NCBI GenBank assembly: GCA_913055735.1
Contig: CAJXKD010000001.1
Span: forward strand, 1,790,923-1,854,922
Direction: 5' to 3'
Length of the DNA stretch: 64,000 nt
From: an uncultured Rhodospirillales bacterium
Lineage (GTDB): Bacteria; Pseudomonadota; Alphaproteobacteria; Rhodospirillales; UBA2165
Shown here: positions 41,093-51,263 of the stretch, in pieces
How the letters are laid out: every line of letters starts with the position of its first letter
Position numbering within the stretch: position 1 is the stretch's first letter
Notes under the pieces: model-generated
Database searches by the model: none
Told to the model about the DNA's origin: nothing
The model's input: the letters and a program-made list of their open reading frames with translations, nothing else
Program-made: the position numbers and the translations under genes

Positions 41093-41250
41093 TTGGATCC
41101 ACCTTTACTTCGACAAGGCAATTCGCCCCTATTATAAGGCAACGAACCACCCCTCATTAGATGGGTAACGATGCTACCTTAAATATGTCGTGCCCGCAGG
41201 CGGCTGCAAGTGGGAACAGACGGCATTTTGCACCCCGGGATTCCGCAAAA

Positions 41251-42009
41251 ATGGCTGTAATGATCAAAAAACTCTACCGTTACCCCGTTAAGGGCATGAC
41301 GGCGCAACCCCTGGATCGCGTCGATTTGGAGGTCGGTCGCGAGATGCCATTCGATCGCGCCTACGCCCTGGCCCGCTCAAATACGGCATTTGATTCCGGC
41401 CATCCCACCTGGCTTGCCAAGACCAACTTCCTCATGTTGATGCGGGACGAGCGCATGGCGGAGATCGAGGCGGGCTTCGATCCGGCGACGAAGACCTTGT
41501 CCCTTTCATTGGAAGGCCGCGCTCTGGCGGAAGGTTGTCTGGATGACGCGGATGGCCGTGCCCGCATCGAAAACGCCGTTGCCGACGTCTTGGGACTGGG
41601 CGAGAGCGAACGGCCGCGACTTGTCGCGGCGCCGGGCCATACCTTCTCCGATTATGATGCCAAGGTCATATCGCTGATCAATTTGGCGTCGGTCGAGGCG
41701 CTTGCCGAGGTCATGGGTGAACCGGTCGATCCCCTACGGTTTCGGGGAAACCTCTATGTCGAGGGGGCGGCGCCATGGGCGGAGTTCGATTGGATCGGCC
41801 GGCAGATCAAAATCGGCGGTGTTGTGCTGGAGCCTATCCACCGCACCAAGCGATGCGCGGCAACCAACGTGAACCCGGTCACCGCCGCGCGGGATCTGAA
41901 CATTCCGAAGGCGCTGCAGAAAACCTACGGACATATGGATATGGGAATTTACGCGCGTGTCGTTGCGCCCGGTACCATCGCCCCAGGCAAAAGTCTCGAA
42001 ATCAGCTAG
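41251..42009 (+). CDS. MOSC domain protein
   Basis: YRYPVKG, DR.YAL, RFRGN, RC. Confidence 0.9.
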   Translation: MAVMIKKLYRYPVKGMTAQPLDRVDLEVGREMPFDRAYALARSNTAFDSGHPTWLAKTNFLMLMRDERMAEIEAGFDPATKTLSLSLEGRALAEGCLDDADGRARIENAVADVLGLGESERPRLVAAPGHTFSDYDAKVISLINLASVEALAEVMGEPVDPLRFRGNLYVEGAAPWAEFDWIGRQIKIGGVVLEPIHRTKRCAATNVNPVTAARDLNIPKALQKTYGHMDMGIYARVVAPGTIAPGKSLEIS

Positions 42010-42026: not shown

Positions 42027-42680
42027 TTAAAGCGCGATCTGATCCGGTGTTTCGTCGGCATCGCTGCTTGCGGCTTCCGCTTTATCCGCGGTTTTCTCGC
42101 CGTCCGACCCACCGTCGGCGGCAATTTCCACCACTTCGCCGGATTTCTCCCCACTACCGTTGTTGGCGCCGTTGTTGCGGCCAGCACCATTGGCGCGGCT
42201 CCTCCGGGACGGCCTCCGACCGCCATTTGATCCGTTGCCGTGGGAACGATCGGGCGTTTCGCTGCTCTCGGCCTGTTGCTCCTCGCCCTGTGAGGCGCTC
42301 TGCGGGGCTTCGTTCGCGCCGCCGTTGCTCTGCGCGGCGACGTCCGTGCCCTCGTTCGTTTCTTCATCTTGTTGATTGTCGTCGGCGCGGTTGTCATGTC
42401 CGCCATTGAAGCGGCGGTTCCGCTGGGCGTCGCTATTCCGCTCTGCGTCGGCGTTCAAAATGCGGAAATAATGTTCGGCGTGTTGGAAGAAGTTTTCGGA
42501 GGCGATCCGGTCGCCCGAGGACAAAGCGTCCCGTGCCAACATCAAATATTTCTCATAGACCTGCTGGGCGGTCCCCCGAACGCGTCCCTCAGGGCCATTG
42601 CTATCGAAATTATTGTTGCGCGGTTGACGTTTGCCGGTCCCGCGATTACGGCCTCGACGGGGATTGGAACCCTGTTTCAT
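42027..42680 (-). CDS. DUF4167 domain protein
   Basis: FDSNGP..RVRGTAQQVYEKYL.LARDA..SGDR...EN..QHAEHY.R. Confidence 0.92.
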   Translation of the reverse strand: MKQGSNPRRGRNRGTGKRQPRNNNFDSNGPEGRVRGTAQQVYEKYLMLARDALSSGDRIASENFFQHAEHYFRILNADAERNSDAQRNRRFNGGHDNRADDNQQDEETNEGTDVAAQSNGGANEAPQSASQGEEQQAESSETPDRSHGNGSNGGRRPSRRSRANGAGRNNGANNGSGEKSGEVVEIAADGGSDGEKTADKAEAASSDADETPDQIAL

Positions 42681-42895
42681 GACATCCAATTCTACTGGTT
42701 TCGCCGGTTAAGTCCCCCGGCCTGCGCAATCCTCCTCGGTGGCGGTTCCAGCCGCCGGCCCCGGGTTCGCAAACGCTTTTCAGGGGAGGGGTTTTCCCGC
42801 TTTCCGCGGTGCATCGCAATTCCTGCGTGCCAACGCCCACACCGCAAAATTAACCATGTGCGGCGAATATTCCAACTACGGAATCCAAATTAATG

Positions 42896-43783
42896 TTATA
42901 TGCGGGCAACTGTTGCCAAAATGCAACGATCAATTCCGGCCAAATCCTTTCGGGTTTCGCATATTCCCAAGCCATGCTGTTTCAGCAGCGAGGAAATCGC
43001 TCTTTCCTGCCCTTGCCCGAACTCCAATGCCACGATTCCGTTCGGGGTCAGCAAGCCGGTAAGAGCGGGGATCAAGGTGCGGTAGACGTCCAACCCATCC
43101 GTTCCTCCGACGAGGGCCTCACGCGGTTCGAAATCGCGCACTTCGGGGTCGAGACCGGCCCAGTCGGCCTCGGACACATAAGGCGGATTGCACAGGATAA
43201 GATCGAAACGGTCCGAAACCGCCTCCGACCAATCGCTGTACAAAAATGTAGCGCGGCTATCCAAGCCGAGGGCCGCGGCGTTCCGCCGGGCAACATCCAA
43301 GGCGGCGCGGCTTATATCGACGCCAATACCGTGCGCGGATGGAAATTCGTGCAGCATGCTGAGGAGCAGGCATCCGGTGCCGGTTCCCAAATCGAGAATC
43401 GTTTGGGGTGGCTCGCGGTCTGTAAACCGGTCCAGCACGGCTTCGATCGTGGTTTCGGAATCGGGCCGCGGCGCCAAGGTGTCCCGGGTGACATGGAATG
43501 CAAGGCTCCAGAATTCCCGGCTCTCAAGGATTTGAGCGACCGGCTCGCAAGTGGCGCGGCGCCGGATCATCTCGTCGAAACGGGCGACTTGCTCCGGACG
43601 CAGTATTTTTTCCGGGTGTCCGACGATGTCGGATGTCGTACATCCGATGGCACGCTCAAGCAACAATCGGGCGTCCAGCCCGGCGCTGTCGATGTCCGCT
43701 GCAACGAGAACGGCTCGGCCGCGCGCCAACGTTCCGCCGATTGTCGTTTCCGGCTTTGCCAATGTTGCGGCCCCTTCGCTCAT
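42896..43783 (-). CDS. prmC: Release factor glutamine methyltransferase
   Basis: [19 protein letters not shown]. Start MSEG overlaps the prfA stop. Confidence 0.95.
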
Positions 43784-44847
43784 GACATGGCGGCCAGTTT
43801 CTCTGCCTGATCTTCGGTGGCGAGCGCGTCGACCAGTTCGTCGAGGTCGCCTTCCATAATCCGATCGATCTTGTAGAGGGTGAGGTTGATCCGATGATCG
43901 GTGACGCGGCCCTGCGGGAAATTGTAGGTGCGGATGCGTTCCGACCGGTCGCCGGAACCGACTTGGTTTTTCCGGTTTGCCGCCCGCTCGGCTTCGCGTT
44001 CCAGGCGCTGCGTCTCGTACAGCCGGGAGCGAAGCACCTTCATTGCCTTGGCGCGGTTCTTGTGCTGCGACTTTTCGTCCTGGCACTGTACGACGATGCC
44101 GGTCGGAATGTGCGTAATGCGTACCGCGCTGTCGGTTTTGTTGACGTGCTGCCCGCCGGCGCCCTGGGCGCGGTAGGTATCGACCCGGAGATCCTTGGTC
44201 TCGATTTGGACATCGAATTCCTCGGCCTCGGGCAATACGGCGACGGTCGCGGCCGACGTATGGACGCGGCCTTGTGATTCCGTTTCCGGGACGCGCTGGA
44301 CGCGGTGAACGCCGGATTCGTACTTCAAGCGGGCGAAAACCCCACGCCCCGAAATGGTCGCCATCGCTTCCTTGTAGCCGCCGATACCGGTCTCGCTCAG
44401 GCTGATGACCTCGAATTTCCAATTGTTGGCTTCGGCGTAGCGTTGATACATGCGGAACAGATTGGCCGCAAATAATGCCGCTTCATCGCCGCCGGTGCCC
44501 GCCCGGACCTCGAGAATGGCGTTGCGATCGTCGGCTTCGTCCTTGGGCAGCAACAAAAGCTGAATACTGTGTTCCAACTCGGGCAGCTTGGCGGTGAGCG
44601 TTCGATGCTCCTCTTCGGCCATTTCCTTGACCTCGGCATCGCCGTCGGCCATCAGCTCCTCGAGATCGGCAATTTCCTTCTCCACCGCGCGCAGTTCCTC
44701 AACCGCGCTGACGATGGCCGTCAGATCGGCATATTCCTTTGACAGGCGGGCATATTCTTGGCCCTCCAATTGGGTCTGGCCGGCGAGCATATCGCGCAAC
44801 TCATGGTGCCGCGATACCACGACGGCCAGCTTATCTTCGATCGACAT
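43780..44847 (-). CDS. prfA: Peptide chain release factor 1
   Basis: PET recognition motif, GGQ. Confidence 0.98.
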
Positions 44848-44849
44848 GG

Positions 44850-46067
44850 TTATAAGTCTCCGTTCCCCCGCCCGAACAGCCAGCGGAATAGCTTGGGGAA
44901 CCAGGCAACAGGGCCTTTTCTTTTGGATTGCGTCCGGTCGGCGGCGAGGCGATCGATCAATAATCGAGTGGCTGTGTCGGCATCGCCGCCGGAATCGGAA
45001 ACCGCCTGCCGGCGGGCTTCCTCGATACGCTCTTTTCCGTGGCCTTTAAGATAGGCAGCAACTTCACGTTCCAAAAGGGTCCAGCCGACTTCGGAATCGG
45101 CGGCGCGTAACGCACGGCCCTCGGTGGCGACCCGTTCGAGATCGTCGAGGGTATAGCGGAAGGCATCCTCGAGTTGGTCGACCGCCGGATCAACGTCGCC
45201 GGGCACGCCCGTATCGATCAACAGAACCGGCTTGTGGCGCCGAACGGCGATCGCCTTCGTCATTTGCTCGACATCGATGCAGTAGCGGCGCGTATTGAGG
45301 GCCGTGATCACGATGTCCGATTTGGTTAAAAGGCGCGGCAGCTGATCGAACGTATCCATATGGCAATTGAGCGCGCGCGCCATACGCTCGGCGCGCTGTT
45401 CCGATCCATGCACCACCGTCAGATCGGCGAGGCCCGCTGCCAGCATGTCACCGGCGACGACCTCTCCCATCTCTCCGACGCCGACCAGCAGACCGGTGCA
45501 GCGGGACAGGTCGCCGTGCAAATCTCGGGCGACCCTGATCGCGGCGCCCGAGATCGTCGCCGGGCGTTTGTCGAAGCCGGTCTCCCTGTTGACGCGTTCC
45601 GCGGCCTCCAAGGCCGCCGCCATCAACGCGCGAAGGCCGGGGCCATCCATGCCCTCCTCGGCGGCGCGGCGGTGGCTCGTCCGCAGTTCGTTGGAGAAGC
45701 GCGGCTCGCCGATGACGACATCGTCGAGAGCGGCGGTGGCGGCAAAAAGGTGGCGTACCGCCTCGCCGTCGGTGATGACGTACATCTGATCCTTCAACAG
45801 GGTCGGGTCCAGCCCCGCGTGATCGGCCATCAATTGCGCGATCCCGGATGCGGCCTTTTCGCAATCGCTGTGAAGCGCCAGGATCTCGACCCTTTCGGGC
45901 GTCGAAATCACCAGGGCTTCGTTGATATCGGCGGCACGTAGACCGTCGACGAAACCATGCATTTCCGTTTCGTCGATGAACAGCCGGTCGCGGACCGTCA
46001 TGGATGACGTCCGGTGATTTGTGCCGACCACCAAGGGCCGTTCTTCAAATGTGCTCGATTCGACCAT
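44850..46067 (-). CDS. Glutamyl-tRNA reductase homolog, predicted catalytically inactive
   Basis: HemA architecture (VG.NHR, HLF, GEP, GVGEMG, ID.GVP.DV), but STCNR is replaced by STPER. Confidence 0.85.
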
Positions 46068-46073
46068 GGCAGA

Positions 46074-47318
46074 TCAGCGGTAACGCGCGAGATGCTCCTC
46101 CATTGCGTCCCATGATACTTCGGATTGCTCTCCGGTGACCATGTCTCTGACGGTGCCGGAGCCACGGTTCAACTCATCGTCGCCGATCAGGATCGCGGCG
46201 CAGGCACCCAGCTTGTCGGCCCGCTTCATGCGTTTGCCCAAGTTGCCGGAATACCCCAGTTCGACGGAGAAACCTTTGCCGCGCAGTTTCTGTGTGAGGG
46301 TCATGGCGAACCGTTGGGCGGCATCTCCCATGGGGATAACGGCGATGGGCCCCGGCACAGCCTCGCCTTCGTCGACCAGGAGCGACAGGCGCTCGACGCC
46401 CGCGGCCCAACCGACGCCCGGCGCTTCGGGGCCGCCCATCTGTTTCGATAATCCGTCATAGCGACCGCCGGCGAGCACCGTTCCTTGGGCGCCCAGTTCA
46501 TTGGTGGTGAACTCGAATGCCGTATGGCAGTAATAATCGAGACCGCGCACCAGCTTCGGGTTGATCTCATAGGGAATGCCCAAGTCATCGAGCCCAGTGC
46601 AAACGTCATCAAAGAATGTGCGAGAGGCCTCGTTGAGGCTGTCGTTCAACCGGGGCGCGTCGGCGATGATCGCGCGATCCCCTTCGTCCTTGGAATCGAG
46701 AATACGCAGAGGGTTGCGTTCGAGCCGCATGCGGCTGTCTTCCGACAACTTGCTTTCGTGCTGTTTCAGATAGGCAACCAGTTTGTCGCGATAGGCGGCG
46801 CGGCTTTCAGTATCGCCCAAGCTATTCAGTTCCAGCGTCACCTTGTCGGCAAGCCCGAGCTCGCTCAGGATTTGCTGGGCGAGAGCGATGGTTTCTATAT
46901 CGGCGATGGGGGCGGCGACGCCCAGCAACTCGATGCCGACCTGCCGGAACTCGCGCCAACGGCCTTTCTGCGGGCGTTCGTAGCGGAACATGGGGCCCCG
47001 GTAGAACAGTTTCAGCGGCAGATCCTGTTGCAGCCCGTTGGAAATCAGGGCGCGCACGATGCCCGCCGTGCCTTCGGGCCGGAGGGTGATCAGATCGCCA
47101 CCGCGGTCTTCGAACGTATACATTTCCTTGGTGACGATATCGGAGGTATCGCCGAGGGTGCGGCTGAACACCTCGGTGAACTCGAAGACGGGCGTGGTAA
47201 TCTCGCCAAAGCCGTAAAGGCCGGCGACATCATAGGCCGTTTCCTCCACGCGCCGATAGCGGCGGTTGTCGTCGGGCAGAATGTCGTGGGTGCCGCGGAC
47301 CGGGTTTAGGCGTGCCAT
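46074..47318 (-). CDS. hisS: Histidine--tRNA ligase
   Basis: RGTHD, LRPEGTA, FRYERPQKGR, RGLDYY, GGRYD. Confidence 0.98.
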   Translation of the reverse strand: MARLNPVRGTHDILPDDNRRYRRVEETAYDVAGLYGFGEITTPVFEFTEVFSRTLGDTSDIVTKEMYTFEDRGGDLITLRPEGTAGIVRALISNGLQQDLPLKLFYRGPMFRYERPQKGRWREFRQVGIELLGVAAPIADIETIALAQQILSELGLADKVTLELNSLGDTESRAAYRDKLVAYLKQHESKLSEDSRMRLERNPLRILDSKDEGDRAIIADAPRLNDSLNEASRTFFDDVCTGLDDLGIPYEINPKLVRGLDYYCHTAFEFTTNELGAQGTVLAGGRYDGLSKQMGGPEAPGVGWAAGVERLSLLVDEGEAVPGPIAVIPMGDAAQRFAMTLTQKLRGKGFSVELGYSGNLGKRMKRADKLGACAAILIGDDELNRGSGTVRDMVTGEQSEVSWDAMEEHLARYR

Positions 47319-47480: not shown

Positions 47481-48755
47481 CTATTCGACGACCGCTTGGC
47501 CTTGGCGCAGCTTCTCGGCATCCAGGGCCACGTTACGCCGGACCACGCCCGTTTCGCCGATGGACGGAACGACGTCACCGTTGACCGTGATCTCGAGGGC
47601 GCCGGCATTGCCGGTCATCAGGATCAGGCCCGCGCGGTCGGGTACTTCGTAGAAATCGCCGCCACGCAACAGCTTGGTCATGACCAACTGGTCGGAATTG
47701 CCGTCGCGGATTTGCACCCAGCTGTCACGCAGGGCGCGCACGACGATCTGCTGTCCGGCGGGTGCCGCGGCGACCTGTTCGGATCGCGTTTCCTCGACGG
47801 TTGCCTCGGGTTGCTGTGGGGTTTCGGGTTCCGCTGCGGGTGTTTCGGTCTCTTGTTGGGCGCTTTCCGGGGCGGGCAGGGCTGCGACCGTTTCCGGGAC
47901 CGGCAATGCGGGTGGCGCCGCCTCTTCCTGCGGCTGCGGCCGCACGGCGGTGGCTGTCTCGGGCGCCCGGACGACGGGAACCTCCGCTTCCGGTGTCGTT
48001 TCCGGTGCAGCTACCGGTGTGCGGACCGTCGCTTCCGGCGCGGGCGCCGCTTCTGCGGGTTCCGGTGTGGCGGGTGGCGTGCTTTCAACGGGCGCCACGG
48101 AAACGGTTTGCGTCTCTTCCGCAGGTGCCGGTTTTGGTTCGGGCTCTTTCGCCTTGACGGGTTCGGGTTCCGGGGCCGGCGGCGTTTCCGTTTCTTCCAC
48201 GGCGGGCGCATTGGCCATGGCCGCGGTCGGTGTGCTCGGGCGCGGGGCCGCGTCTTCCGCCATCGGCGGCATTTCGCTGACCGCACCGGTGTCGCTATCC
48301 TCCGCCTGAAGATTTTCGGGAACGGGCGGCACCGGGTCCGTCACAAAGCGGTCCTGGGTCGACACGAAATACCAGCCGCCATAGCCGGCAATGGCAATCA
48401 GCAAGGCCGCCATCAAAATGGCGCCACGCGGAATGCCGTGTTCCGGGATGAAGGACGGAAACGCCAGTTCCTGGGTTTTCTGCTCGACGGTACCGGTCGT
48501 GTCCTTGAAGCGGCGGACGACCTCTTCGCCATCCAGACCGAGATACTCCGCATAGCCCCGAATGAACCCGACCGCATACGCATGACCGGGAAGATCGTCG
48601 TACCGGTCTTCCTCGATGGCTTCCAGGTAAGGGTACCGGATACGCAACGTCGCCGCGACGTCCGCCAGTTCCTCGCCGCGGCGCAGTCGCGACGCCCGGA
48701 GCAATCCGCCAATACCGCCTTTCCGGCCTTCGTTTATGTCGGGTTGAGTATCCAC
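47481..48755 (-). CDS. rodZ: RodZ-like protein (HTH-TM-linker-DUF4115)
   Basis: N-terminal HTH (LRIR..YL.AIE..Y..GFIR.YA.YLGL), TM, Pro/Ala/Glu linker, SWVQI...GNAGAL. Confidence 0.88.
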   Translation of the reverse strand: MDTQPDINEGRKGGIGGLLRASRLRRGEELADVAATLRIRYPYLEAIEEDRYDDLPGHAYAVGFIRGYAEYLGLDGEEVVRRFKDTTGTVEQKTQELAFPSFIPEHGIPRGAILMAALLIAIAGYGGWYFVSTQDRFVTDPVPPVPENLQAEDSDTGAVSEMPPMAEDAAPRPSTPTAAMANAPAVEETETPPAPEPEPVKAKEPEPKPAPAEETQTVSVAPVESTPPATPEPAEAAPAPEATVRTPVAAPETTPEAEVPVVRAPETATAVRPQPQEEAAPPALPVPETVAALPAPESAQQETETPAAEPETPQQPEATVEETRSEQVAAAPAGQQIVVRALRDSWVQIRDGNSDQLVMTKLLRGGDFYEVPDRAGLILMTGNAGALEITVNGDVVPSIGETGVVRRNVALDAEKLRQGQAVVE

Positions 48756-48986: not shown

Positions 48987-51263
48987 TTAAATAATCACTC
49001 CATGATCGAGCGCGAAATCACGCAGTCGCTGGCGAATGCTGTGATCGGAAAGGTCCTGGAGGGACACGAGATAGCGCTCCAGGGACTCCAAATGCAGGCT
49101 GCGGATCATGGTTTTGATGGGGCCGATGGCGGACGGCATCATCGATAGGCTACGAACGCCGATGCCGATAAGGGCCATGGCGTCCAAAGGCCGCCCCGCT
49201 ATCTCTCCACAAAGGCTCAAGGGCACATTCGCTGAATTGCACTGCTCCACGAGGTGGCGGAGGAACGCCAAGCCGCCGGGAGATAGCGGATCGTAGCGGT
49301 CGGCGAGCCGTGGACTTCCGCGGTCGCTGGCAAACAGGAATTGGAACAGGTCGTTGCTACCGACCGAAATGAAATCGACTTTTTTCAACAACGCGGGCAG
49401 TTGAAAGGCAAGGGCGGGCACCTCGAGCATGGTGCCGACCCGCAATGTGGCCGGCAGGGGGCGGGACCGTTGGGCCGCGCGTTCCAATTCACGTTCCAGA
49501 AGCGCTTTCGCGGCGTCGAACTCGGTAACCTCGGCGATCATCGGGAACATGATGGTTAGATCGCGGCCCGCCGCCGCCCGGATCAGAGCACGGAACTGGT
49601 GGCGGATCAGAACCGGCTGGTCGAGGGAAACGCGGATCGCCCGCCACCCCATGGCCGGGTTCTCCTCGGCGGCACCGCTCCAATAGGGGAGGTTCTTGTC
49701 GCCGCCGATATCGAGCGTGCGGAAAACGACGGGTTTGCCGTCGCTGAATTCGAAAATGCGTTCATAGAGAGCCGCTTGCCGGTCCACATCGGGAAACTGG
49801 GTGCTCTCCATAAAAGGAATTTCGGTGCGGTAGAGACCGATGCCGTCGGCACCGGTATCGATCAAACTCTGCAGATCGGCGAAAAGTCCTGCGTTGATGT
49901 TGAGCGATACCGCCATGCCGTCCCGCGTTTCGGCGGGAACGTCACGCAACGCGGCATAGACTTCCATCTGCTGCGTGCGATCGGCCAGCGTTTCGACGTA
50001 AGCGTGGTGGATATCCTCCGACGGGCGGATGTGAACTTCGGCGCTGTCGCCGTCGATAATGACTTGATCGCCGGCAACGACGGCATCCAATACACCCGTC
50101 GCCCGGCCCACGACGGGGATATCCAGCGCGCGCGCGACGATGGCGACGTGCGTGGTCGCCGATCCTTCTTCGAGAACAAGGCCTCGCAGGCGTTCCCGGT
50201 CGTAATCGAGCAGTTGTGCCGGTCCCATGTTGCGGGCGACCAGGATCATGTCGTCCGGGAGATCCTCGGTCGGGCCGACTTGCGTGGTGCCCGTCAGGTG
50301 TTGCAGCAGCCGGTTGGCCAAATCTTCGAAATCGTGCAGGCGTTCGCGCAAATAAGGGTCGCGCAGGTTGCGGAAACGGGCACGGGTGTCGCTGTCGACC
50401 TTTTCGACGGCCGCTTCCGCGGTCAGACCGGTATCGATAGCCTCGCTGATCCGCGCCAGCCAGCCGGCATCTTCGGCAAACATGCGGTAAGCCATGAGAA
50501 TTTCGCGATGCTCTCCGTCGGCAACGTCGCTTTGCTCGAGCATCTCATCGATCGCACCGTGCAGATCGGCGACCGCTTTTTCCAATCGGCCGTGTTCGGT
50601 CTCGGGGTTTTCGGCAACCAGGGTGGTGATGGCGACACGCGGGTTGTGCAGCACCGCTTCGCCGATGGCGAGGCCGCCATTCAGCCGCACGCCTTCGACG
50701 GTAATAGGTTGCAGAGTAATGCCGTCGACCGCCTGCATTTCGTCGCGGCTGACCAACTGGCCGCCGGCGATGAGTTCCGCGAGGACCATCGCCACGGTTT
50801 CGAGGGTTTCGACTTCCTCGTCGGTGTAGTTGCGCCGGGTGCGGTTCTGGACGGCGACAACGCCGAGCACACGGCCGCCGCGCAGGATCGGCACGCCCAT
50901 GAGGGAATTGAAGATTTCTTCACCGGTCTCCGGCCGGTAGGCGAAACTGGGATGGGATTGCGCTTCGGGTAGCGCGAGCGCCCGCGCACCCGCCGCGATG
51001 GTGCCGATCAAACCTTCGCCGATCCGCAAGCGGGTATTGTGGACGGCCGACGGTTTCAGGCCGGTGGCGGCGAACAACTCGAGGATTTCACCCGCGCGCA
51101 GGATGTAGAGGGAACACACTTCGGCGACCATGTCGGTCGCGATGATACTGACGATCCGGTCAAGGCGTTCCTGTGGCGCCTCGTCGGCGGCGCCGACGGC
51201 CATGACGTCGCGAACCCGCGCGAGAAGGCGGCGCGACCCGGTCAGCATTGGTGCACGTGCCAT
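48987..51263 (-). CDS. ptsP: PTS enzyme I-Ntr (GAF-PtsP)
   Basis: GAF domain, THVAIVAR phospho-His, GLYRTE, SVGSNDL, CGE. Confidence 0.96.
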   Translation of the reverse strand: MARAPMLTGSRRLLARVRDVMAVGAADEAPQERLDRIVSIIATDMVAEVCSLYILRAGEILELFAATGLKPSAVHNTRLRIGEGLIGTIAAGARALALPEAQSHPSFAYRPETGEEIFNSLMGVPILRGGRVLGVVAVQNRTRRNYTDEEVETLETVAMVLAELIAGGQLVSRDEMQAVDGITLQPITVEGVRLNGGLAIGEAVLHNPRVAITTLVAENPETEHGRLEKAVADLHGAIDEMLEQSDVADGEHREILMAYRMFAEDAGWLARISEAIDTGLTAEAAVEKVDSDTRARFRNLRDPYLRERLHDFEDLANRLLQHLTGTTQVGPTEDLPDDMILVARNMGPAQLLDYDRERLRGLVLEEGSATTHVAIVARALDIPVVGRATGVLDAVVAGDQVIIDGDSAEVHIRPSEDIHHAYVETLADRTQQMEVYAALRDVPAETRDGMAVSLNINAGLFADLQSLIDTGADGIGLYRTEIPFMESTQFPDVDRQAALYERIFEFSDGKPVVFRTLDIGGDKNLPYWSGAAEENPAMGWRAIRVSLDQPVLIRHQFRALIRAAAGRDLTIMFPMIAEVTEFDAAKALLERELERAAQRSRPLPATLRVGTMLEVPALAFQLPALLKKVDFISVGSNDLFQFLFASDRGSPRLADRYDPLSPGGLAFLRHLVEQCNSANVPLSLCGEIAGRPLDAMALIGIGVRSLSMMPSAIGPIKTMIRSLHLESLERYLVSLQDLSDHSIRQRLRDFALDHGVII

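Follow-up and report, generated by a model that had tools for sequence, protein, structure and literature searches.

A glutamyl-tRNA reductase homolog without its catalytic cysteine, probably retained as a pseudoenzyme between hisS and prfA in an uncultured Rhodospirillales bacterium

In most bacteria, archaea, and plants, tetrapyrrole synthesis is committed, and most tightly controlled, at glutamyl-tRNA reductase (GluTR, HemA/GtrR), one of a small number of enzymes that consume an aminoacyl-tRNA for a purpose other than translation. Here, we describe gtrL, a gene at positions 44850..46067 (minus strand) of a 64,000-nucleotide stretch (hereafter, the window) of the genome of an uncultured Rhodospirillales bacterium, which encodes a 405-residue GluTR homolog lacking the catalytic cysteine. 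With a probability of roughly 70%, we regard its product as a GluTR-derived pseudoenzyme kept by selection for a non-catalytic job: it is homologous to an active enzyme family, its catalytic residues are gone, and it has been under purifying selection since their loss. An original prediction, drawn from the letters of the window alone, had proposed a retained pseudoenzyme rather than decay or an assembly error, and this view is borne out by a cysteine loss that spans the clade, by the grouping of the Cys-less proteins in one old clade, by ratios of nonsynonymous to synonymous substitution rates (dN/dS) of 0.06-0.23, and by a genome that encodes 5-aminolevulinic acid (ALA) synthase (ALAS). Beyond that prediction lie the clade-wide extent of the loss, the accompanying loss of the dimerization domain, and the mostly orphan state of the Cys-keeping alphaproteobacterial GluTRs.

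The passages on mechanism in two earlier studies describe how the active-site cysteine of the GluTR N-terminal domain attacks the glutamyl-tRNA ester, forming a thioester that is then reduced by NADPH, while a third domain of three helices builds the V-shaped dimer where HemL docks (PMC7242693, PMC6399207). The product of gtrL has the GluTR architecture, with an N-terminal GlutR_N domain (PF05201, 1.7e-27, residues 14-163) followed by a Shikimate_DH-type NADP-binding domain (PF01488, 7.8e-27, residues 179-313); a search for the dimerization domain PF00745 gave no match at E <= 1. Against the hemA model TIGR01035 it scores 234.2 bits (cut-off 209.55), over profile positions 2-340 of 416 only, and it falls far under the cut-offs of six other GluTR equivalog models (e.g., NF000744, 201.9 against 429). 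Among solved structures, it matches GluTR from M. kandleri (1gpj, 2e-29) and from Arabidopsis (4n7r, 4e-22). An AlphaFold (AF2) model, with a predicted local distance difference test score (pLDDT) of 88.6 and a predicted TM-score (pTM) of 0.72, contains both globular domains, a spinal helix (residues 307-358), one more helix (363-382), and a disordered tail. With this model, Foldseek ranked 1gpj first (E 5.2e-24, TM 0.65, 393 columns), followed by 5yjl, 4n7r, and 5che. The tail, residues 383-405 (44853..44921, minus strand), is of low confidence (pLDDT 47, 56, and 39 in the last blocks) and absent from relatives, the clade consensus ending at about residue 382. A two-copy complex prediction scored 0.04 and 0.02 and is not counted as evidence either way.

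At the catalytic site, residues 55-61 (45885..45905, minus strand) read S-T-P-E-R-V-E in place of S-T-C-N/D-R-V-E. The original prediction had noticed this departure, writing the expected motif as S-T-C-N/D-R-x-E, and it is confirmed by the DNA itself, by column counts, and by a HMMER alignment that places Pro57 on the cysteine of “vlstcnrmeiy” in 4n7r. Codon 57 is CCC (45897-45899), at least two bases away from TGY. Residues 114-128 (45684..45728, minus strand) correspond to the loop LDSxxxGEPQxLGQxK, which we take to be glutamate-binding; the pocket-loop changes are S116D, Q123R, G126N, Q127E, and K129R, while L114, D115, G120, E121, and P122 are kept. Neither the catalytic-Cys nor the pocket-loop signature of GluTR is therefore present in gtrL. 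The Rossmann GxGxxG motif, reported as a retained NADPH motif, is indeed intact in the DNA as GVGEMG (residues 196-201; 45465..45482, minus strand). Residues 220-222 (45402..45410, minus strand) read H-G-S; GluTRs from other classes carry N-R-T there, after strand 2, presumably the 2'-phosphate-binding motif of the NADPH site. Overall, gtrL shares with canonical GluTR (1GPJ; 4N7R/5YJL; hemA of other Pseudomonadota classes) the catalytic and Rossmann domains and the spinal helix, and with the hemA genes of those classes a place directly upstream of prfA. Unlike gtrL, with its Pro57, altered loop, H-G-S, and no detected PF00745, the canonical proteins have the catalytic cysteine, an intact pocket loop, N-R-T, and PF00745, and hemA of other classes scores 374-514 bits with TIGR01035 against 234 for gtrL.

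The same loss is found throughout the window's family. In a panel of 41 genomes, the window's own and 40 relatives, a gtrL homolog is present in 39; the two without it are G017 (66% complete) and G034 (95% complete). In every family genome whose N-terminus could be read, 23 in all, the cysteine is missing, replaced by P, D, T, I, K, S, G, V, H, or N. Relatives at this locus thus do not keep it; the original prediction had named its retention in close relatives, combined with a dN/dS near 1, as the mark of an incipient pseudogene. The copy in G006 is cut by a contig end and that in G038 is a C-terminal fragment, and neither enters the motif counts. In other families of the order, 14 of 14 genomes have S/A-T-C-D-R and LDSxxxGEPQxLGQxK. 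The cysteine is present at 65 of 80 named public-genome loci, including those of Terasakiella, Telmatospirillum, and Magnetospirillum, and the 15 without it all belong to uncultured marine “Rhodospirillales/Rhodospirillaceae” metagenome-assembled genomes. The nearest relatives of the window protein, at 57-60% identity, have Asp at position 57. One Cys-keeping homolog (L051, G035:C49:9000-16200) lies in two frames, matching query residues 5-181 and 170-380, owing to either a frameshift or an assembly error; in the same genome, G035 (85% complete), no ALAS match was found.

Phylogenetically, the Cys-less proteins amount to essentially a single clade, and the loss is ancient. In a FastTree phylogeny of 128 rows, 12 of them out-group rows from other Pseudomonadota classes, all 38 Cys-less rows fall in one clade (support 100) with a single change, and IQ-TREE (LG+G4, 67 rows) likewise unites 28 of 28 (SH-aLRT 98). 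With the pocket columns dropped, 25 of these 28 still fall in the clade containing the window protein (support 99), with two changes. When the 128 rows were extended by 119 database homologs and 30 class-level loci, the resulting 277-row tree required two changes for its 68 Cys-less rows, one for 67 that group together (support 83) and one for P0006 alone, which has Trp at the site. A library of 1.84 billion proteins yielded 12,323 matches at E <= 0.001; the best 150 cluster representatives of these have the cysteine in 115 cases, lack it in 28, and leave the site uncovered in 7. A 154-row FastTree phylogeny with cluster representatives gave six changes, its main Cys-less clade comprising 25 rows (support 89). 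About ten Cys-less representatives stand outside the main clade (P0139, P0166, P0178, P0179, P0186, P0195, P0225, P0233, P0252, and P0253), which suggests up to about five further losses, or long-branch scatter. A Cys-less protein with Gly at the site, from a genome of a different family (G164, locus L191), joins the main clade.

Residue counts were made over 194 Cys-keeping alphaproteobacterial, 58 Cys-less, and 12 out-group distinct rows. C57 occurs in 194/194 Cys-keeping and 12/12 out-group rows and in none of the 58 Cys-less ones (T18, I8, D7, S7, G6, V4, others). The Cys-less rows also depart from their Cys-keeping counterparts at R59 (37/58 vs 194/194), S116 (31/58 vs 193/194), G126 (24/58 vs 190/194), and Q127 (23/58 vs 194/194); E121 (194/194) is E in 9/58 and D in 48/58, and K129 (190/194) is K in 2/58 and R in 39/58. 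Because the pocket positions at which residues 114-128 deviate are near-invariant in the 194 Cys-keeping homologs, the altered substrate loop described in the original prediction is not a product of chance. Outside the pocket, the 58 Cys-less rows keep G15 (58), H18 (57), S21 (58), R26 (58), Y96 (57), A103 (58), and G120 (58), as well as H184 (56), G185 (58), G196 (58), G198 (56), G201 (56), H220 (57), C235 (57), H236 (57), D251 (58), R276 (58), P280 (58), D285 (58), P289 (58), G290 (58), D291 (57), D309 (58), and L310 (58). Relaxation is thus limited to the pocket columns, the Rossmann domain and the N-terminal G-A-x-H-R-S-S...R-D-R motif being as conserved as before or more so.

The dimerization domain was lost along with the cysteine. 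Among the 119 database homologs, 90 have both the cysteine and PF00745, none has the cysteine without PF00745, 26 have neither, and three (P0006, P0011, and P0013) have PF00745 without the cysteine; P0006 is the protein that stands apart from the main Cys-less clade in the 277-row tree. Median length is 403 aa in Cys-less proteins versus 431 aa in Cys-keeping ones.

Some Rossmann changes are shared by the whole alphaproteobacterial group. At residues 220-222, the out-group has N, R, and T in 12 of 12 rows each, and H220 is found in 57/58 Cys-less and 146/194 Cys-keeping rows; relative to other classes, the group has exchanged N-R-T for H-P/G-x, P-R-D for P-G-D, and F184 for H. Group-wide residues are H184, H220, C235-H236, R260, and G290, the other classes having F, N, G-H, S/T/N, and R at these columns. 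As these His/Cys changes predate the loss of the catalytic cysteine, cofactor use may already have shifted earlier, and the cluster might represent an altered cofactor or metal site.

The pattern of conservation bears on whether gtrL is still an enzyme with a new chemistry, either an NAD(P)H-dependent oxidoreductase that handles a different substrate in the remodeled pocket or a GluTR with another nucleophile, which we consider improbable. The Rossmann domain, GxGxxG included, is very well conserved, the clade has replacements of its own (D121 for E in 48/58, R129 for K in 39/58, R123 for Q in 28/58), and sub-clades have motifs such as STTD[LI]TE with GDTQLLGQLRS, all of which would suit such an enzyme. 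A common new active site should, however, be conserved clade-wide, yet no common residue occupies position 57, Arg59 is lost in 21/58 rows, and G126 and Q127 persist in 24/58 and 23/58 only; moreover, Pro57 of the window protein is not a nucleophile and the nearby C69 is not conserved. A new enzymatic activity is thus made less likely by a pocket that is unconserved within the clade.

After the loss of the cysteine, gtrL remained intact and under purifying selection of a strength like that on hisS. By the NG86 method, dN/dS in 13 pairs within the Cys-less clade ranges from 0.058 to 0.227, compared with 0.036-0.228 for hisS and 0.026-0.179 for prfA in the same pairs and 0.054-0.391 for 15 Cys-keeping pairs, with dS within compared pairs of up to 2.8. 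The original prediction had proposed this calculation as a means of recognizing an incipient pseudogene, and the values are not near 1. Between the window gtrL and the nearest genus dN/dS is 0.207, at a dS of 1.7 that is saturated. An environmental relative of about 94% identity is represented by a 35-kb contig in runs X2 and X3 that spans the entire gene, with 101 differences over the compared sequence and not a single indel; its equal length and identical differences in the two runs mean that they are possibly one data set. Of 96 differences, 40 are listed, 32 of them in gtrL and 24 of these at third codon positions; they alter 30 codons, 24 synonymously and 6 conservatively. Run X1 covers 14 of 30 bins at low depth, and no RNA run was listed among those containing the sequence. 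Identity between members of the Cys-less clade is only 35-60%, yet some 40 positions vary little or not at all.

These substitution patterns also speak to the proposal that gtrL has no protein function and that its frame is kept for translational coupling to prfA-prmC, or for DNA or RNA signals of the operon, which we hold to be very improbable. Such a role would fit the 6-bp and 2-bp gaps to the neighboring genes, the gap of <=20 bp between the gtrL stop and the prfA start in 38/41 Cys-less and 91/103 Cys-keeping loci, and a GGAG 10 nt ahead of the prfA ATG, found by eye within the gtrL tail, which is likely the prfA ribosome-binding site. For coupling, an open frame suffices, but dN/dS values lie at 0.06-0.23 (dS reaching 2.8), most changed codons listed for the nearest relative are synonymous, and the near-invariant positions persist through a divergent clade; with synonymous sites free to vary, it is not the RNA that is constrained. 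Where lineages have dropped the gene, moreover, hisS has simply become joined to prfA. A misassembled Cys codon, or a hemA inactivated only recently and on its way to loss, can be dismissed as next to negligible, for although the 40 of 96 differences listed for the X2/X3 contig stop short of codon 57 and the 100%-identity protein P0001 is the window's own protein, CCC lies at least two bases from TGC/TGT, the cysteine is missing clade-wide in favor of many different residues, and the frame is intact everywhere except in the split G035 copy and under strong selection.

The gene content of the genome is in keeping with a GluTR homolog that makes no ALA. The assembly (3.73 Mb, 3 contigs, 94.8% complete) contains one GluTR homolog, gtrL itself, four other matches being Rossmann-only (23-29 bits). 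It encodes ALAS (671 bits, cut-off 338.55) and hemB, and no hemL over cut-off was found in it, the best candidate reaching 263.6 bits against 527.3 for TIGR00713. The original prediction had suggested a search for ALA synthase, hemL, and a second hemA, of which only ALA synthase was recovered. From this inventory, the ALA of the organism would come from ALA synthase and not from gtrL. The best hemL-like candidate is a 427-aa class-III aminotransferase (L008:1234-2517, minus strand, on G000:C1 at about 1.558 Mb) that scores 378 against a cut-off of 486 with NF004856, “glutamate-1-semialdehyde 2,1-aminomutase” (GSAM). Sub-threshold hemL-like paralogs of 250-394 bits are patchy among relatives, and it is chiefly because of such divergent GSAM-like proteins that the label “orphan” for the GluTR homologs calls for caution. 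A link between such a paralog and the state of the cysteine was considered and dropped, hits of at least 250 bits occurring in 11/25 family versus 8/14 Cys-keeping genomes of the order.

In the 41-genome panel, ALAS is over cut-off in 37 genomes and hemL in one (G037, 6% contamination). Among 201 sampled alphaproteobacterial genomes, 35 have a GluTR-family match (E <= 1e-30); of the 34 other than the window's, 27 have ALAS (E <= 1e-100) and two, G163 and G194, have hemL over the model cut-off. With ALAS common and hemL rare in GluTR-bearing genomes, even the Cys-keeping GluTRs are mostly orphans. The two hemL-bearing genomes (loci L162 and L171; 1.6-1.7 Mb) have STCNR, N-R-S/T, GluTR scores of 301-362 bits, and hemL scores of 600-606 bits; with ALAS missing from both at E <= 1e-100, they look like true C5-pathway users in the class. 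Five further genomes, G155, G159, G167, G176, and G178 (completeness 87, 95, 68, 79, and 94%), have neither ALAS nor hemL over threshold and may use a divergent aminomutase; G159 has a 394-bit hemL-like gene.

The Cys-keeping orphans (Terasakiella, Telmatospirillum, and Magnetospirillum loci; Rhodospirillum rubrum) sit in the same hisS-gtrL-prfA-prmC locus as gtrL and share with its group H184, H220, C235-H236, R260, and G290, as well as a genomic setting in which ALAS is mostly present and hemL rarely so. Unlike gtrL, they keep C57, R59, S116, E121, G126, Q127, and K129 (190-194/194) and PF00745 (90/90), and they may still be active. In the part of PMC4684066 that reports the experiment, ALA rose from 12.4 to 25.9 mg/g, roughly a twofold gain, when R. 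sphaeroides expressed the R. rubrum gene, and no enzyme assay appears there.

The locus itself has a long history. At 30 of 30 hemA loci from other Pseudomonadota classes, prfA follows directly downstream on the same strand, which marks the alphaproteobacterial gene as what vertical descent has left of that operon, hisS having joined it on the upstream side. At 102 of 118 loci, hisS, gtrL, prfA, and prmC follow one another in this order on a single strand, the remaining 16 ending at locus borders and none contradicting it. In three of five examined Alphaproteobacteria without a gtrL homolog, hisS lies directly upstream of prfA-prmC, indicating clean deletion of the gene.

Taken together, these findings lead us to read gtrL as a retained pseudoenzyme with the following putative history. 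The gene would be a vertical descendant of proteobacterial hemA, still in its ancestral place upstream of prfA-prmC. An ancestor of the marine Rhodospirillales-like family would have lost the thioester cysteine, after which the glutamate pocket would have drifted and the C-terminal dimerization domain eroded, while purifying selection would have preserved the Rossmann domain in its entirety, together with the N-terminal G-A-x-H-R-S-S...R-D-R motif, for a task without catalysis. Since the nucleophile, the pocket, and the dimer domain are lost and the remainder is constrained, the protein should produce no glutamate-1-semialdehyde, ALA being supplied by ALA synthase, and the missing dimer domain makes it probably monomeric. 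The conserved parts point to binding, and we tentatively suggest, at somewhat less than even odds, that gtrL may act by binding, its likely ligands being tRNA(Glu) or a protein partner and/or a nicotinamide dinucleotide seated in the Rossmann domain. The original prediction had offered a tRNA(Glu)/NADPH-binding regulator, a heme-pathway scaffold, and a translation-linked factor as possible roles. The product of gtrL could thus be a regulatory or adaptor protein, made in a fixed ratio with histidyl-tRNA synthetase (HisRS), release factor 1 (RF1), and PrmC through translational coupling. A possible analogy is HisZ, an inactive HisRS paralog that serves as the regulatory subunit of ATP phosphoribosyltransferase; like gtrL as we picture it, HisZ is an enzyme of aminoacyl-tRNA metabolism retained without catalysis as a binding or regulatory protein, although fold and pathway are unrelated.

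Several observations weigh against a retained non-catalytic role. The gene is absent from 166 of the 201 sampled alphaproteobacterial genomes, and this, together with the clean deletions, means that most lineages can do without any such role. Evolution is also about 1.8 times faster in the Cys-less clade than among the Cys-keeping proteins (median path from the alphaproteobacterial ancestor 2.01 versus 1.10, pocket columns excluded), so constraint is partly relaxed. The dN/dS pairs are kin rather than independent, and their open reading frames, taken from stop to stop, include a few upstream non-coding codons. With N-R-T replaced group-wide, NADPH binding is not assured. Finally, position 57 is Thr or Ser in 25 of the 58 Cys-less rows, where an oxyester is conceivable, but the window protein has Pro.

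Beyond gtrL itself, GluTR may have an ancestral second function that is non-catalytic and tied to translation, such as sensing or holding tRNA(Glu) or affecting RF1/PrmC expression or activity, an idea that we regard as doubtful. If true, it would explain why hemA stands directly upstream of prfA across Pseudomonadota and why about a sixth of alphaproteobacterial families kept an orphan GluTR after the switch to ALA synthase, and the Cys-less clade would be a natural separation-of-function mutant in which the second function alone survives. That a large, old clade keeps the protein without its nucleophile, pocket, and dimer domain argues that the scaffold is useful for something else. The clade offers a handle on the persistent hemA-prfA linkage free of confounding heme auxotrophy, and it bears on what a “glutamyl-tRNA reductase” annotation means in ALAS-using Alphaproteobacteria. 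Databases automatically give these proteins that name, which would mislead pathway reconstructions. In the full-text literature, a coverage that leaves out subscription journals and supplements, we found nothing that describes a GluTR without the cysteine or an orphan GluTR in ALAS-using Alphaproteobacteria; the sole match for “pseudoenzyme” concerned TrpC-TrpF of a protist, another subject.

Within the window, the four genes lie on the minus strand. Upstream, hisS (histidine-tRNA ligase, 46074..47318; TIGR00442, 480.3 bits, cut-off 286.75) ends 6 bp before gtrL, which opens with ATG. Downstream, prfA (release factor 1, 43780..44847; NF001859, 532.8 bits, cut-off 400) starts 2 bp past the gtrL stop, and prmC, or hemK (release factor glutamine methyltransferase, 42896..43783; TIGR03534, 273.8 bits, cut-off 199.1), overlaps the prfA stop with its start. 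The original prediction had given the identities of these flanking genes, the two spacings, and the unbroken 405-aa frame, and all of them hold. A scan for promoters and terminators gave sites no more numerous than in shuffled sequence. Among the compared loci, apparent fused frames (852 aa in G010, 872 aa in G155) and gtrL-prfA gaps of -1074 and -127 bp proved to be artefacts of stop-to-stop frames or match run-on, the former not being fusions.

The database copy P0001 (383 aa, 95% query coverage) apparently starts 22 residues later than gtrL, leaving out residues 1-22 (46002-46067, minus strand), and we infer that its start corresponds to Met23. That start would remove the conserved first strand with the near-invariant G15 and H18, which makes the start at 46067, 6 bp after hisS, the better one. 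On the hisS side, the minus strand further encodes a RodZ-like protein (47481-48755; HTH_25 and RodZ_C) with a long Pro/Ala/Glu-rich linker and a GAF-domain phosphoenolpyruvate-utilizing enzyme of the PtsP type (48987-51263). Beyond prmC lie a DUF4167 protein (42027-42689, minus strand) and a MOSC-domain protein (41161-42009, plus strand).

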